From an uncultured Acidobacteriota bacterium (GTDB lineage Bacteria; Acidobacteriota; Thermoanaerobaculia; Gp7-AA8), in NCBI GenBank assembly GCA_963741955.1, contig CAVUKB010000005.1, forward strand, positions 1,248,001-1,312,000: a stretch of 64,000 nucleotides of DNA, given 5' to 3'. This document shows, one piece after another, positions 23,132 through 32,168 of this stretch; the first letter of the stretch is position 1, and each line of letters begins with the position of its first letter. The notes beneath the pieces were generated by a model. It did not search any database, had not been told where the DNA came from, and saw only the letters and a program-made list of their open reading frames with translations. The position numbers and the translations under genes are program-made.

Positions 23132-24853
23132 TCAGAAGGTCCAGGGAAAGTAAAGCATCTCTGGACTCGGGAATTCACTCAACATGTCGATCCTGTGAGT
23201 CCATATCACCGCAACCGGCGCGGCGGGATTACCGCCTTCCACAGAGATCTCATGTCGTCCGCTCTCCAGCCACAAACCCTGCGAAGTCATCTGCTTTCCG
23301 TCGATCGACACACGTGGGGCGCCCGAGCCATAGATTCGATACATACCCGTCGAGGCGATAGGGAATGCCGCTCGACCACCGCGCCAGTCGGATGGAGCGA
23401 CAATCCATCCAGTCACGCCGACTTTCCCGTATACGAGCGGAAAGGCCTTGCCCAGGAAGGCGCGATCGGAGCGACTCAGCCAACCGGTCCTGTACGAGGG
23501 CACGACCAATCGGACGTGGTAGCGCCAAAGTTCCTGAGATATCCGAAATTCTCCCTGCCAATAACGGGGCATCATCAGGCTGTGGAGGCGCCAGTAATAC
23601 GGTCCTTTTCGGAACAGAATCAGGCCCGCCGTGTCATAGACCCGCTCATCCGAAGGCACCACTGCCATAACGATCCGGTTCGCCTCCAACTGGGGCGCGA
23701 GCGAGTTCGTCTGAGCGAGCGAGACGAACCGAAACGTCGGAAATGCCACGACCAGCACGACGAGCAACCACCCTGCCCAGTTCCGAATTTGAAAAGCACG
23801 CTGGAGTGCCATGCCCGCGAAGACCGCCCAAACGGGGGCTACGTCCACGAAGTTGTATGGAAAGAAGGTCGGGTTGGCAATCACGTAGACGATCGTAAAC
23901 AGCAGCGGTGCAGCGAGGATGTAACTCCGCCTGCCGTACCGTCTGAAAGCCACTCCGAGAACTCCTGCCAGCGTCAGCGCGTAGAAAACGGAATTCCGCA
24001 GGAATGACGTCTCGAAGAAACCGATCGGACTGACGCGGCTGATGGGAGCGGCAGAAACCTGCAGGTTCCGGACGATCGTCTCTGCGAAGAGCTGCAGGTC
24101 TCCTCTTGCGGTCAGGTAGAGGAGGTAAGACAGCAGAACCAGTCCTAGACCTGCCGCGAAGGCAAGAAGGTGATCGAAGAATCGTCTCCACCTTTCACCA
24201 CTCCATACGTGCAGAAGGATCGCCAGACCGAGAAACGGGATCATCAGGAACGCTTTGAAGTTGAACGTGAACGCGAGTCCGGTCATGGCTCCCGACAGCA
24301 GAAGTGCGAGCCTCGAATCCGTTTGAATCAGAATAATCGCCGTGAGCATCAGCAGGATCAGGACCGAATCACTCCGAAATTCGATCACCCGGTCACTGAA
24401 ATCAGTCATGAAGGAGATCGCGATCATCGCGAGCACGGCCGCGGATCGTCCCGCGATCCTCAGCGCGAGGACTCCGGTCAACAAAATGACGGTTGCACCG
24501 ACGCCCCATTGAATCGAGCGAAACAAATACACTCCTCGGAGACTCGATCCAAGGATCCTCCAGATTCCCTCGGCCAGATCGATCAGCAGACTGAACTGCG
24601 GAAACGAATAGTCGACACCCGGCCGCTCGCCCGCGGACCGAAGCCATCCAAGATGGAGCAGTTGCATCTCGTCCACCTGCAGGTAACGGCTCCAGGCAAC
24701 CACCAGCCTCACCAGCATGGCAAAGCCGATCAGAGCGAAACCGTAAAAACGAAATCTGGAAGAAGATTCGAACGGCCCTTCGGCGGGAAGATTCGTGAGC
24801 TGACTTTCGACCGATGAGTCGGACTGCGCAGTCACCGACATGATCCGGATCAC
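23132..24853 (-). CDS. GT-C fold membrane glycosyltransferase (ArnT/GT39-like)
   Basis: About 11-12 hydrophobic helices, acidic DE motif (QVDEMQ) in the loop after TM1, EFRSD, soluble C-terminal domain. Start could be 24841. Confidence 0.72.
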   Translation of the reverse strand: MIRIMSVTAQSDSSVESQLTNLPAEGPFESSSRFRFYGFALIGFAMLVRLVVAWSRYLQVDEMQLLHLGWLRSAGERPGVDYSFPQFSLLIDLAEGIWRILGSSLRGVYLFRSIQWGVGATVILLTGVLALRIAGRSAAVLAMIAISFMTDFSDRVIEFRSDSVLILLMLTAIILIQTDSRLALLLSGAMTGLAFTFNFKAFLMIPFLGLAILLHVWSGERWRRFFDHLLAFAAGLGLVLLSYLLYLTARGDLQLFAETIVRNLQVSAAPISRVSPIGFFETSFLRNSVFYALTLAGVLGVAFRRYGRRSYILAAPLLFTIVYVIANPTFFPYNFVDVAPVWAVFAGMALQRAFQIRNWAGWLLVVLVVAFPTFRFVSLAQTNSLAPQLEANRIVMAVVPSDERVYDTAGLILFRKGPYYWRLHSLMMPRYWQGEFRISQELWRYHVRLVVPSYRTGWLSRSDRAFLGKAFPLVYGKVGVTGWIVAPSDWRGGRAAFPIASTGMYRIYGSGAPRVSIDGKQMTSQGLWLESGRHEISVEGGNPAAPVAVIWTHRIDMLSEFPSPEMLYFPWTF

Positions 24854-25018
24854 CTGGATCGAAGCAGCACGATTACGGCCAGGAATACACTCTGGGCCCA
24901 GGCCGTGGCAGCTCCGACTCCTGATTCCACGCCGCCAGCGGCGAGCACGCCACGCCGCCAGAGCTCGCCATATGTTATCATTTCGCGATTTCGATCATTC
25001 AATTCGACCTTCCTTCGC

Positions 25019-25750
25019 ATGGATTCACCAATTCTGACCATCGCGATGCCGGTGTTCAACGAGGAAGCTGTGATCGCCGGCACAGTCCGCGAGGCGCTTG
25101 CCGCGCTCGACTCTTTCGAGGAGCCGGGAGAGGTTCTCGTCATCAACGACGGATCGACCGACCGGACTACGGAAGTCCTCACCCTCCTCCTTGATCGCGA
25201 CGCTCGACTGCGGGTCATCTCGAACGAGACGAACTACGGTATCTCCCGCTTCAACCGACAGATGATCGAGCATGCTCGGGGTGAGTGGGTTTTTTTCATT
25301 GGGTCGGACGGAGAATGGGAGTGTGCCGAGGCCATCCGGTTCCTCCGTTTTGCGCGCGAGAAAAACGTCGAGGCAGTGCTTGGATACCGGGTTCGGAAGC
25401 AATATGGCGTGTGGCGTTCCGTCGTATCCGCCTCTTTCAATCTCCTGGTTTTTCTCTGTTTCGGCGCCAGGTTTCGCGACGTCGGAAGCATCCGGCTTCT
25501 GAAACGAAGCACCTTTGGGGCACTTCGTCTCTATTCTCGATCGGCTTTTCTGAATGCGGAGCGGCTCCTCGTCGGGAAGAGGAGGGGCGCGCACTACTTA
25601 CAAGTACCCGTCAAACACCTCAGACGGAAGGGAGGGAGAGGCAGGGGAGCAACTCCGCGACGAGTGCTCGCCTCGCTCGCGGATCTCTTTCGCACGCGCT
25701 GGCGCTGGTTTCGATTCCAGACCTTCTATGGAGGCGAAAGTTCTCGGTGA
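25019..25750 (+). CDS. Glycosyltransferase family 2 (polyprenol-phosphate glycosyltransferase-like)
   Basis: IAMPVFNEE, EVLVINDGSTDRT, NYG, GYR..R, C-terminal basic/amphipathic helix typical of Dpm1/GtrB-like GT2. The ORF track starts at 24905. Confidence 0.85.
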   Translation: MDSPILTIAMPVFNEEAVIAGTVREALAALDSFEEPGEVLVINDGSTDRTTEVLTLLLDRDARLRVISNETNYGISRFNRQMIEHARGEWVFFIGSDGEWECAEAIRFLRFAREKNVEAVLGYRVRKQYGVWRSVVSASFNLLVFLCFGARFRDVGSIRLLKRSTFGALRLYSRSAFLNAERLLVGKRRGAHYLQVPVKHLRRKGGRGRGATPRRVLASLADLFRTRWRWFRFQTFYGGESSR

Positions 25751-30974: not shown

Positions 30975-30989
30975 GATCCCCGGAAGGGA

Positions 30990-32168
30990 TCAGCAAGGGA
31001 CTCCAAAAAATCGCCGGATCTGCTCACATACGTAGTCTACCTGATCGTCCGCGAGGGTTGGAAACATCGGCAGAGAAAGGAGCTGTTCGGCTGCGGATTT
31101 GGCGACCGGGCATGCGTCGAGCGGCAGCGGCTTATCGAGGATCGGTTGGGCGTGTACCGGGTGGGGGTAATGCACAGCCGTTGCGATTTCACTTTTCGCG
31201 AGAAACTCCGCAAGGCGAGACCGTTCGGAGGTGAGAATGACAAACTGGTGATACACCGGTTCGGCGCGGGAATCCTCTTCCAGCATGCGGATCTGGCGGC
31301 ATTCCGCGAGGCCTCGCCGGTATCGGCCTGCGATCACCCTCCGCCGTTCGTTCTGAGCATCCAGTTCCAGAAGCCGGACCCTCAGCACGGCGGCCTGCAA
31401 GGCATCGAGCCGGCTGTTGCAGCCCCACCGGTCGTGCCACGACCGTCCGCTCTGCCCATGATTCCCGAAGTGCCTGATCTCCGAGATCAACCCGGGGCTA
31501 TCGGACGTGACCGCGCCACCATCCCCGAAGCATCCGAGATTCTTCGATGGGTAAAAGCTCCATCCTGCAGCCACGCCGAACGATCCCACCCGCGTTCCGT
31601 TCCATTTCGCTCCCTGGGCCTGGGCGGCGTCTTCCAGATACCAGAGACCGCGCGACTCACAGAAGGTACCGATCGCATCGAGGTCGAAAGGGTGGCCATA
31701 GAGATGAACTCCGACCACTCCCACCGTTCGCTCGCCGACGCATTTCGCGACTTCCTCCGGCGAGATCGTCAAGGAGTCAGGAGCGACGTCCGCGAAGACC
31801 GGGGTCGCGCCGGAGTGGAGAACCGCCTCCACGGTCGCGAAGAAGGTCATGGCCGGGATCACGATCTCGGCGCGAGGACCGGCACCCAACGCGCGAAGCG
31901 AGAGCGTGATGGCATCGGTTCCGTTTGCAACTCCCGCGCAATGGGCGGAACCGATGAAGGATGCGAACTCCGTCTCGAAGGACTCGACCTCGCCGCCGCC
32001 GATGAATTGGCCGCGTTCGACCAGCCGATTCCACGTGGAGCGCAACTTTGAATCGTGCGCCTCAGAAAGCGGAGGGATGAGAAACTGAGGTACGTTCACG
32101 GCACTATACCTCGGTGGCGGCATAAGGTACCCGCAGAGGGGGGCGCGTGGAGTGAGAAGGTACGGCAA
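30990..32168 (-). CDS. DegT/DnrJ/EryC1/StrS aminotransferase (NDP-keto-sugar transaminase)
   Basis: FIGG.EV..FE, GVANGTDA, VHLYG, EDAAQAQGA, PLP-Lys SFYPSKNLG.FGDGG, NSRLDALQAA, HYP.P.H, LSLPMFP. The true start is uncertain (32168, 32123 or 32099). Confidence 0.92.
   Translation of the reverse strand: MPYLLTPRAPLCGYLMPPPRYSAVNVPQFLIPPLSEAHDSKLRSTWNRLVERGQFIGGGEVESFETEFASFIGSAHCAGVANGTDAITLSLRALGAGPRAEIVIPAMTFFATVEAVLHSGATPVFADVAPDSLTISPEEVAKCVGERTVGVVGVHLYGHPFDLDAIGTFCESRGLWYLEDAAQAQGAKWNGTRVGSFGVAAGWSFYPSKNLGCFGDGGAVTSDSPGLISEIRHFGNHGQSGRSWHDRWGCNSRLDALQAAVLRVRLLELDAQNERRRVIAGRYRRGLAECRQIRMLEEDSRAEPVYHQFVILTSERSRLAEFLAKSEIATAVHYPHPVHAQPILDKPLPLDACPVAKSAAEQLLSLPMFPTLADDQVDYVCEQIRRFFGVPC

Follow-up and report, generated by a model that had tools for sequence, protein, structure and literature searches.

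A conserved ComA(B) and ATP-grasp cassette in an uncultured Acidobacteriota bacterium and its proposed role in cell-envelope decoration

Related systems and organization of the cassette

ComA adds sulfite to phosphoenolpyruvate (PEP), and ComB dephosphorylates the product to give 3-sulfolactate; these are the first two enzymes of the coenzyme M pathway. Pairs of a Gfo/Idh/MocA oxidoreductase and a DegT aminotransferase, namely WbpB/WbpE and GnnA/GnnB, make 3-amino sugars, and ArnC moves an N-formylated amino sugar to undecaprenyl phosphate. The subject of this study is a cassette of eight genes at positions 23132-32168 of a 64,000-nucleotide stretch of DNA from an uncultured Acidobacteriota bacterium (assembly GCA_963741955.1, contig CAVUKB010000005.1, positions 1,248,001 to 1,312,000), which is referred to below as the window and in which members of these families stand together with an ATP-grasp ligase. 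The cassette is real and conserved, and it is undescribed as far as the literature was searched; that search, with most subscription journals outside it, found neither the term "sulfolactyl" nor a link of ComA to ATP-grasp enzymes or to glycan synthesis. It is best explained as a set of accessory genes for decoration of the cell envelope, transferred between phyla, with a near-invariant core in which ComA, usually fused to ComB, is encoded directly before a dedicated ATP-grasp carboxylate-amine ligase; a methyltransferase gene usually comes after that of the ligase.

The cassette resembles the Arn system in its plan, i.e., an amino nucleotide-sugar made by a DegT enzyme, N-acylation, transfer onto undecaprenyl phosphate by a family 2 glycosyltransferase (GT2), a flippase, and transfer on the outside by a glycosyltransferase of the GT-C fold; among the window proteins, the nearest solved relatives of the GT2 are ArnC structures, and the GT-C protein gives its best template modeling score (TM-score) with ArnT. 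It differs in that neither the ArnA formyltransferase/decarboxylase nor ArnD nor ArnE/F is found among the eight genes, the proposed acyl group is sulfolactate joined by an ATP-grasp enzyme, the flippase candidate is a UPF0104 protein, and the charge that would be added is negative, not positive. As in WbpB/WbpE and GnnA/GnnB, the Gfo/Idh/MocA gene adjoins the DegT gene, and the DegT protein matches WbpE (3nyu, E = 7.5e-66) and QdtB (3frk, E = 1e-74), whereas the Gfo/Idh/MocA protein stays below the cut-off for UDP-N-acetylglucosamine (UDP-GlcNAc) 3-dehydrogenase and has no WbpB or WlbA entry among the 46 solved relatives listed.

The remaining likeness concerns the membrane proteins. UPF0104 is described as the flippase domain of MprF, with a predicted function in the flipping of lipid-linked sugars (preprint 10.1101/2022.03.11.483950), and the archaeal AglD is described as a GT2 fused to UPF0104 (COG0392), for which flipping of a lipid-linked sugar is predicted (PMC5898192). 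In AglD, GpgSDF, and HexSDF, as these are presented in PMC5898192 and PMC12713373, a glycosyltransferase is coupled to UPF0104, and the corresponding pair of genes in the window overlaps by GTGA. The GT2 and UPF0104 of the window differ from AglD in being separate proteins that are tied to an acyl-supply/ligase operon; they differ from GpgSDF in that GpgS is given as a GT4 enzyme whose product is a phospholipid head group (PMC12713373), and no deacetylase is present in the window cassette. The cassette works like Arn and AglD-type lipid-carrier glycosylation but is a member of neither, because it has no ArnA, ArnD, or ArnE/F and its proteins stay below several equivalog cut-offs.

An earlier note on this DNA, made from the sequence alone, had described the gene content, three 4-bp overlaps, and a convergent and divergent layout, all of which are borne out by the open reading frames (ORFs), the Pfam domains, and the sequence (Table 1). 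On the minus strand, from 32168 to 26703, the genes for DegT, Gfo/Idh/MocA, a ComA-ComB fusion, the ATP-grasp ligase, and a class I S-adenosylmethionine (SAM)-dependent methyltransferase follow one another, and ATGA stop/start overlaps of 4 bp each (29907-29910, 28438-28441, and 27410-27413) couple the Gfo/Idh/MocA gene through to the methyltransferase gene. This five-gene operon is convergent on the genes for GT2 and UPF0104, with an overlap of 55 bp (26703-26757) between the 3' ends of the methyltransferase and UPF0104 genes, and the GT-C gene is divergent from the GT2 gene. The stop codon of the GT2 gene and the GTG start codon of the UPF0104 gene overlap as GTGA at 25747-25750, so that translational coupling extends to these two genes as well. 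Chance alone does not explain the layout, because the order and orientation from Gfo/Idh/MocA to GT-C are repeated in L026, an unrelated metagenome contig, at protein identities of 38-68%.

Table 1. Features of the cassette and of the remaining window, with their family matches and proposed roles
Feature	Position	Strand	Match or structure	Proposed role or remark
GT-C membrane glycosyltransferase	23132..24853	-	573 residues, C-terminal beta-rich domain of ~180 residues	
ArnC-like GT2	25019..25750 (ORF 24905-25750)	+	PF00535, E = 3.3e-22	Proposed loader of the lipid phosphate
UPF0104/LPG_synthase_TM (MprF-flippase-like, COG0392)	25747..26757	+	PF03706, E = 4.3e-39, ORF residues 165-457	
Class I SAM-dependent methyltransferase	26703..27413	-	PF13489, E = 1.7e-23	
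ATP-grasp ligase	27410..28441	-	Uncharacterized ortholog group	Proposed sulfolactate:amino-sugar amide ligase
ComA-ComB fusion	28438..29910	-	Phosphosulfolactate synthase, residues ~13-257; 2-phosphosulfolactate phosphatase, residues ~280-486	
Gfo/Idh/MocA NAD(P) oxidoreductase	29907..30974	-	PF01408, E = 1.9e-26; PF22725	Proposed sugar 3-dehydrogenase
DegT/DnrJ/EryC1 pyridoxal phosphate-dependent aminotransferase	30990..32168	-	PF01041, E = 2.7e-106, 356 bits	Proposed amino-sugar maker
Terminator-like hairpin	32196..32217	-	9-pair stem with 8 G-C pairs, then T-rich tail	Between the 5S rRNA gene and DegT
5S rRNA	32228-32344	-		
Complete rRNA operon	32228-37669	-	16S, two tRNAs, 23S, 5S	
ADP-forming acyl-CoA synthetase-type protein	7273-9468	-		
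Protein of 1364 residues	13234-17328	+	C-terminal third is an aldehyde dehydrogenase	
Protein of 1103 residues	18954-22265	-	PD40/TolB-like propeller repeats	Just past the GT-C gene
ORF of 274 codons	22299-23123	-	Arginine-rich, non-protein-like translation; no family match	Probably not a gene
Response regulator	47598-49676	+	Two HD-type domains	
LptD	50926-53145	+		

Recurrence of the ComA(B) and ligase core

Loci with close members of the ligase were collected by alignment-based scans (12 in species-representative genomes and 15 in metagenome contigs), the window proteins were mapped onto these loci by tblastn, and a tree of 26 ligase sequences was built. The tree contains a bacterial clade of 14 loci (Shimodaira-Hasegawa-like approximate likelihood ratio test [SH-aLRT] value of 97), which comprises the window, five metagenome contigs, and named metagenome-assembled genomes (MAGs) of the Myxococcota (L002, named "delta proteobacterium," L003, and L006), the Planctomycetota (L004, L005, and L008), and the Gemmatimonadota (L007 and L010). 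ComA or ComAB is encoded directly upstream of the ligase in 12 of the 14 loci (the window, L002, L003, L004, L005, L007, L008, L010, L021, L022, L023, and L026), so that the adjacency spans four phyla, i.e., Acidobacteriota, Myxococcota, Planctomycetota, and Gemmatimonadota; the contig of L024 starts at the ligase, and the upstream side is outside it. DegT and/or GT2 is also found in 12 of the 14 loci, which are all 12 with at least 4 kb of context, the other two contigs being 2.0 and 2.9 kb in length. The earlier note had put forward the recurrence of comA/comB with ATP-grasp, sugar, and glycosyltransferase genes as the test of its proposal, and the lack of conserved linkage as the outcome that would refute it; the recurrence is there in four phyla, and the refuting outcome did not occur. 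That sulfolactate synthesis and the ATP-grasp ligase are functionally coupled is, in our view, highly probable.

The other genes accompany this core to different extents. L026 carries seven of the eight window genes (Gfo/Idh/MocA, ComAB, ATP-grasp, and methyltransferase, convergent on UPF0104 and GT2, with GT-C divergent), and L021 repeats the segment of the window from ComAB to GT2. Homologs of the Gfo/Idh/MocA protein stand beside ComAB in L002, L023, and L026 (48-68% identity), and those of the methyltransferase (54-58% identity) are encoded directly after the ATP-grasp ligase in L004, L005, L021, and L026 and one gene further in L002. GT2 homologs with 54-61% identity are found in L002, L021, and L026, and UPF0104 homologs are paired with GT2 in the same three loci, as detected by tblastn, and in L006; the GT-C homologs of L026 and L024 show 40% and 26% identity, respectively. 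In total, tblastn places Gfo/Idh/MocA in 4 of the 14 bacterial loci, the methyltransferase in 7 (and in 1 more, L024, by Pfam), UPF0104 in 5 (L006 by Pfam), and GT-C in 3 (the window, L024, and L026). Only ComA(B) and the ATP-grasp ligase are thus near-invariant, and the lineages differ in the sugar and in the export route.

Further genes in these loci are consistent with such variation. An HldE-like fused nucleotidyltransferase/PfkB kinase is encoded within 5706-12261 of L006 and within 14485-19016 of L007; L006 also has a GlpX-type bisphosphatase beside the ligase and GT2, and L007 has a short-chain dehydrogenase/reductase-type dehydratase adjoining its DegT. These enzymes are hints of a heptose-type sugar acceptor in the lineages of L006 and L007, and the sugar probably differs between lineages. 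A weak match to YfhO, a GT-C protein, beside the DegT of L002 (23 bits against a cut-off of 28.5) is a hint only. Pfam finds nothing in L007:11042-12073, L007:12543-14471, L007:7260-8525, L002:3898-6372, and L024:2659-4329, which are rough ORF picks whose frames are possibly wrong. The genes that flank the cassette in L026 (3175-5322 on the minus strand, 3-2846 on the plus strand, and 13971-15047 on the minus strand) are all envelope-related; they encode an LtaS/EptA-like membrane sulfatase-family protein, a Kdo/WaaP-family kinase domain protein, and a UbiA prenyltransferase.

Proposed pathway and alternatives

The ComA domain of the fusion protein matches PF02679 (E = 1.4e-83, residues 13-253; 280.5 bits against a cut-off of 25.2) over profile positions 2-243 of 243, and the ComB domain matches PF04029 (E = 2.1e-42, residues 280-480; 145.3 bits against a cut-off of 26.4). 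With the NCBIfam equivalogs, ComA falls narrowly under TIGR03849 (273.5 bits against a cut-off of 280), and ComB is under every cut-off (best score of 109.1 bits against 175). Among solved structures, ComA matches 1qwg from Methanocaldococcus (E = 2.3e-58) and 1u83 from Bacillus subtilis (E = 2.9e-40), and ComB matches 2yyv (E = 2.2e-22). On the strength of these assignments, the fusion protein is predicted to make 3-sulfolactate from PEP and sulfite; in the first step of the proposed pathway, ComA would add sulfite to PEP and ComB would remove the phosphate, as expected from the chemistry of the two families and their full-length matches.

The same ComA and ComB families act in coenzyme M synthesis and in the formation of the sulfolactate of Bacillus spores. 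Since the archaeal coenzyme M pathway begins with these two enzymes, and B. subtilis was positive in the ComA control, the fusion might serve coenzyme M synthesis or free sulfolactate storage, as in methanogens and Bacillus spores, with the other genes of the cassette unrelated to it. However, the host genome, which is 99.1% complete, contains no match to the ComC-type dehydrogenase family Ldh_2 (PF02615) and no match to the alpha subunit of sulfopyruvate decarboxylase (TIGR03845), i.e., the ComC and ComDE families of the archaeal pathway are without a match. Because these enzymes are missing, the sulfolactate made here is not on the route to coenzyme M. The window ComA and ComB are, in addition, fused to each other and placed in a sugar/ligase operon, in which ATGA overlaps couple ComAB to the Gfo/Idh/MocA gene on one side and to the ligase gene on the other, and the adjacency to the ligase is kept across four phyla. 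We give hardly any credence to an explanation by coenzyme M synthesis or storage.

The ATP-grasp ligase belongs to a sharply bounded ortholog group, in which about 69 proteins match at E <= 5e-63, followed by a gap to 1e-34. It scores just below the cut-off of PF15632 (ATPgrasp_Ter; 28.1 bits against 29.1) and is not filed in that family, and it reaches 23.3 bits with PF02655, for which the cut-off is 23.2. Foldseek comparison of its AlphaFold2 (AF2) model (predicted local distance difference test [pLDDT] score of 92.9 and predicted TM-score [pTM] of 0.91) retrieves the L-amino-acid ligases RizA and BL00235, PurK, biotin carboxylases, and PylC with a probability of 1.00 and TM-scores of up to 0.71, and the three-domain ATP-grasp fold is confirmed at the level of the model. 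The sequence matches among solved structures include RimK, LysX, an L-amino-acid ligase, and PurD, all of them carboxylate-amine ligases. K114, E192, D268, E281, N283, and R285 are invariant across 23 ortholog rows and in a second alignment; a Lys residue of the central domain and Glu-x-Asn-x-Arg near the C terminus make up what we take to be the ATP/Mg residue motif of ATP-grasp enzymes. In the key step of the proposed pathway, the ligase would activate the carboxylate of sulfolactate as an acyl phosphate and join it as an amide to the amine of the sugar.

Two described systems offer precedents for this step. The C-terminal ATP-grasp domain of Cj1438, from the capsule system of Campylobacter jejuni, makes a sugar amide in glycan synthesis, as described in PMC11800379; in that case a small amine is joined to a carboxylate of the sugar, whereas the proposal for the window has these roles reversed. 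In the misNOPQ genes for misaugamycin-B, a phosphosulfolactate synthase has been recruited for a sulfonated acyl amide, and feeding of sulfite raises the yield (PMC9136965). That route differs in its use of an acyl-CoA ligase and an acyl carrier protein, in its 2-sulfoacetyl group, and in its acceptor, a peptide N terminus, and the role of the cassette is itself given as a prediction (PMC9136965). By analogy with these precedents, the sulfolactyl-amide step is plausible. The listed sequence and fold matches of the window ATP-grasp ligase include no TupA-like or Cj1438 entry.

The chemistry of Cj1438 also bears on an alternative, in which the bond or the roles are different: a sugar uronic acid would give the carboxylate, or the hydroxyl group of sulfolactate would be esterified, or phosphosulfolactate would be used directly. 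Two facts fit this alternative: Cj1438C, an ATP-grasp domain described as TupA-like, makes amides at the C6 carboxylate of glucuronate (PMC11800379), and the ComA of the Planctomycetota cassettes has no ComB adjacent to it. However, sulfolactate has no amine, so that only an ester could be formed with a sugar carboxylate, a product rarely made by this fold class; none of the loci scanned was found to encode a UDP-glucose dehydrogenase, ComB is encoded elsewhere in the Planctomycetota genomes, and the amine-making DegT is the commonest partner of the core. Such a change of bond or roles is quite improbable, and the amide of sulfolactate with an amino sugar remains the preferred reading of the ligase. 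As to the methyltransferase that follows the ligase, its best solved relative is a hypothetical protein (2p7h); more speculatively, it could add a methyl group, possibly on the 2-hydroxyl of the acyl group.

The amino sugar itself would be supplied by the first two genes of the operon. The closest solved relatives of the DegT protein are 7b0d, 2oga, QdtB, and WbpE (E = 3.5e-83 to 7.5e-66); the top match, 7b0d, is labeled glutamine--scyllo-inositol transaminase, and QdtB and WbpE act at C3 of the sugar. The protein reaches no NCBIfam equivalog cut-off. The top NCBIfam match of the Gfo/Idh/MocA protein is UDP-GlcNAc 3-dehydrogenase (NF040723), at 153.4 bits and thus under the cut-off of 450, and inositol 2-dehydrogenase is also matched (E = 8.7e-35). 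In the second step, the Gfo/Idh/MocA enzyme would oxidize a nucleotide sugar, most simply UDP-GlcNAc, at C3, and DegT would aminate the product.

The presence of Gfo/Idh/MocA, ComAB, and an aminotransferase in one operon would also permit a route through cysteate, in which Gfo/Idh/MocA oxidizes sulfolactate to sulfopyruvate, DegT converts this into cysteate, and the ATP-grasp enzyme ligates the cysteate. A ComAB fusion lies beside an aminotransferase in another Acidobacteriota genome, and the ligase resembles L-amino-acid ligases, as this route would have it. However, the nearest solved relatives of DegT include the nucleotide-sugar C3 aminotransferases QdtB and WbpE, Gfo/Idh/MocA is present in only 4 of the 14 bacterial loci, and the aminotransferase in the other genome is of class V, a different family; the cysteate route is very improbable. 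The genome in question belongs to the same class as the host (L044, G182:C33:19500-39400), and its ComAB fusion, 49% identical to that of the window, is encoded directly after the class-V aminotransferase (8022-11038). No ligase or sugar genes are found near this fusion, which, judging from its sequence and neighborhood, appears to be a different and equally uncharacterized use of sulfolactate.

For the steps at the membrane, the three best solved relatives of the GT2 are all ArnC (9bhc, 8vxh, and 9hwj; E = 4.6e-12 to 5.9e-10 over ~207 residues), with 41.5 bits in the ArnC equivalog against a cut-off of 529. UPF0104 scores 135.2 bits with PF03706 (cut-off of 33.4), and its multiple hydrophobic segments mark it as a polytopic membrane protein; by analogy, it is the proposed flippase candidate for the lipid-linked sugar. 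The GT-C protein reaches 22.7 bits with PMT_2, below the cut-off of 26.1, and its AF2 model (pLDDT of 93.2) matches GT-C enzymes throughout among the Foldseek matches listed at E <= 0.001 (STT3/PglB/AglB, ArnT, ALG9, ALG3, Pmt4, AftA/B/D, Emb, and DPY19), with the best TM-score for ArnT (5ezm; 0.56/0.59). Its protein-atlas neighbors are PMT_2/ArnT clusters, and D55 of P0224, an acidic residue that follows the first membrane helix, is the same in all of 45 sequences. The GT-C fold is established from the model, and the protein is, again by analogy, the proposed enzyme for the final transfer of the sugar to an acceptor outside the cytoplasm. The family assignments agree in direction with what the earlier note had assumed: DegT lies closest to solved C3 sugar aminotransferases, GT2 to ArnC, the GT-C fold to ArnT, and the ATP-grasp enzyme to carboxylate-amine ligases. 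In the last step, which is modeled on Arn and AglD, the ArnC-like GT2 would load polyprenyl phosphate with the N-acylated amino sugar, UPF0104, whose gene is coupled to that of GT2, would flip the product, and the GT-C enzyme would transfer it to lipopolysaccharide (LPS), another glycan, or protein on the outer face. The acyl donor of the pathway would be constant across lineages, and the sugar and export genes would vary.

The strongest rival of this last step is a sulfonated glycolipid, in which GT2 puts the sulfolactyl amino sugar on a lipid of the phosphatidylglycerol or diacylglycerol type and UPF0104 flips the product, which would be an anionic, sulfonolipid-like head group in place of a carrier-borne donor. 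GpgSDF makes GlcN-phosphatidylglycerol, and HexSDF is described as analogous; for such operons of a glycosyltransferase and UPF0104, synthesis and translocation of a glycolipid are demonstrated or proposed (PMC12713373); the identity of UPF0104 with the flippase domain of MprF (PMC5898192; preprint 10.1101/2022.03.11.483950) agrees with such a product. Moreover, five loci (the window, L002, L006, L021, and L026) have the pair of UPF0104 and GT2, and a GT-C protein is seen in only three (the window, L024, and L026). However, the only strong solved relatives of the GT2 are ArnC, which is a polyprenyl-phosphate transferase, and GpgS is described as a GT4, not a GT2 (PMC12713373); a GT-C protein, of the class that uses lipid-phosphate-linked donors, is encoded divergently beside the GT2 in both the window and L026. 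We regard the glycolipid as unlikely.

A number of observations weigh against the pathway from sulfite to an exported sulfolactyl amino sugar. Within the bacterial clade, no DegT is found in L026 within 8 kb, and neither ComA nor ComB is found in the MAG of L006, despite its ligase and its context of sugar genes, GT2, and UPF0104. The Planctomycetota cassette consists only of DegT, ComA, and the ligase, with the methyltransferase in two of the three loci and ComB elsewhere in the genomes, and neither a GT2 nor a keto-sugar enzyme is found nearby. The GT2 of the window lacks the C-terminal membrane helices of ArnC and has a single weak hydrophobic stretch, and several equivalog cut-offs are not reached by the cassette proteins. 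Among 38 alignment columns of the ligase that are at least 95% conserved, none has a residue that all ComA-linked ligases share and that the distant homologs without ComA lack; the missing specificity residues neither support nor weaken the reading as a sulfolactyl ligase. Two fused proteins would support the linkage of the genes, but P0007, which reads as ComB plus ATP-grasp and contains an odd low-complexity stretch, and P0103 (612 amino acids), which reads as ATP-grasp plus methyltransferase and was the sole match in a search for longer proteins, are single metagenomic gene calls that may be frameshift artifacts, and they are given little weight. Outside the clade, ComA is present in 21 of 401 Acidobacteriota genomes and the ligase family (E <= 1e-40) in 4, both together only in the genome of the window, and all six of the other ComA loci that were inspected lack the other window genes within ~10 kb. 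Distant ATP-grasp/methyltransferase pairs occupy glycan loci without ComA, and in the archaeal Poseidoniia the ligase adjoins a GT4 and is unlinked from a separate ComA-ComB pair; the co-occurrence of the two in that group may come in part from shared ancestry and from small, incomplete MAGs.

The DegT of the three Planctomycetota cassettes has a C-terminal extension of ~140 residues (L004:8500-8958, L005:2680-3114, and L008:3966-4412) with short motifs common to all three. A ketoisomerase domain that replaces Gfo/Idh/MocA was considered for it and rejected, as Pfam finds no domain there.

The distant ligase homologs of other Acidobacteriota (29-33% identity) keep the adjacent methyltransferase. 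In an O-antigen-like locus of another acidobacterium (L019, G352:C9:751200-771199, ~500-17300), an ATP-grasp/methyltransferase pair with 29-35% identity is accompanied by a nucleoside diphosphate (NDP)-hexose C-methyltransferase, a sugar N-formyltransferase, CmcI, three DegT proteins, Gfo/Idh/MocA, and GT2, and in L018 (G394:C4:95800-115799, 4386-10604) such a pair is in an operon with a GT4, a Wzx-type flippase, and a second GT4, with no ComA. A haloacid dehalogenase (HAD)-type phosphatase of L019 takes the position corresponding to ComB in the window. A different hydroxy acid, derived from a phospho-precursor, may be what the pair of L019 attaches. We read the ligase-methyltransferase pair as a general glycan-tailoring module, in which ComA(B) would be a plug-in that sets the acid in the subfamily of the window.

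Among 201 genomes of Poseidoniia, the ligase is present in 29 and ComA in 31; the two occur together in 22 genomes, the ligase alone in 7, ComA alone in 9, and neither in 163, so that ComA accompanies the ligase in 22 of 29 genomes and occurs in 9 of the 172 genomes without it. This evidence is weaker than the raw counts, because the carriers appear to be related and the MAGs are small and incomplete. Adjacent ComA and ComB genes in this group (Marine Group II, which are not methanogens) were seen in L036 (G003:C22, 8245-9799) and L037 (G002:C3, 8892-10395), where their neighbors are housekeeping genes (a FEN1-like nuclease and RtcB), a geranylgeranyl-reductase-like enzyme, and a sugar nucleotidyltransferase.

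The absence of a glycosyltransferase or keto-sugar enzyme near the Planctomycetota cassettes and the separation of the archaeal ligase from ComA/ComB would be expected if the acceptor were not a sugar, i.e., if sulfolactate were joined to another amine (that of an amino acid, a polyamine, an inosamine, or a lipid head group) to give a sulfonated small molecule and the glycosylation genes were separate neighbors. The nearest folds of the ligase, L-amino-acid ligases and PylC, point in the same direction, as do the inosose aminotransferases within the DegT family, the scyllo-inositol label of 7b0d, and the match of the Gfo/Idh/MocA protein to inositol 2-dehydrogenase. However, DegT and/or GT2 is present in every bacterial-clade locus with sufficient context, ATGA overlaps couple the operon from Gfo/Idh/MocA to the methyltransferase, the distant ATP-grasp/methyltransferase pairs are inside polysaccharide loci, and the archaeal ligase adjoins a GT4. 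A non-sugar acceptor is unlikely as well.

Taken together, the cassette is best read as the complete chain, up to export of a sulfolactyl amino sugar on a lipid carrier, and this reading has about an even chance of being right throughout; in it, we infer the sulfolactyl amide, the identity of the sugar, the site of methylation, and the final acceptor. Of the pathway in the earlier note, which led from an amino sugar through its sulfolactyl amide to transfer onto the envelope, the conserved linkage and the protein families have stood, and its scope has narrowed, in that the sugar and export genes are variable and the product could be a lipid head group.

Genomic setting and biological meaning

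The hairpin at the 5' side of the operon (Table 1) is its upstream boundary, and DegT probably starts at the ATG at 32123; the most likely start of GT2 is the ATG at 25019 (MDSPIL...). The complete rRNA operon is directly upstream of the cassette on the same strand, and the hairpin and ~100 bp are all that separates it from the probable start of DegT. A scan for sigma-70-like promoters gave none before DegT and one site in the whole region, on the opposite strand, against 2.5 expected. Some read-through from the rRNA operon into the cassette is conceivable, because no such promoter is seen in the gap between the rRNA genes and DegT. The G+C content of the cassette (0.58-0.61) is not clearly different from that of the window, and base composition gives no sign of recent transfer. 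One DNA sequencing run, possibly the source of the assembly itself, contains the stretch, and no RNA run is among those listed for it. The named close relatives of the IspG encoded in the window are all from Thermoanaerobaculia MAGs. The window encodes LptD, and the host, a soil acidobacterium, therefore has an outer membrane with LPS.

The modifications of bacterial surface charge that are known comprise phosphate, carboxylate, sulfate esters, and cationic amines. We tentatively propose, at somewhat less than an even chance, that at least four bacterial phyla and a clade of the Poseidoniia, which are abundant marine archaea, make surface glycoconjugates with a C-S bond, in which 3-sulfolactate is amide-linked to an amino sugar, displayed in an Arn/AglD-like manner, and possibly O-methylated. 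If this is true, negative charge would be fixed on LPS or glycoproteins in a manner different from these, through a sulfonate attached by a stable C-S bond and an amide, and metal binding, desiccation, recognition by phages or predators, and cationic-peptide resistance could all be affected. Sulfite would gain a new biological use, in which it gives a permanently anionic group that is resistant to phosphatases and sulfatases, and a new organosulfonate would enter the organic matter of soil and ocean. The cassette is small and self-contained, its eight genes starting from PEP, sulfite, and probably UDP-GlcNAc. ComA and ComB would gain a function in the many non-methanogens that carry them, and a substrate pair would be defined for an uncharacterized ATP-grasp family and for its wider relatives in glycan loci. 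If the genes of the Poseidoniia act alike, the pathway would be an added source of organosulfonate in the surface ocean.

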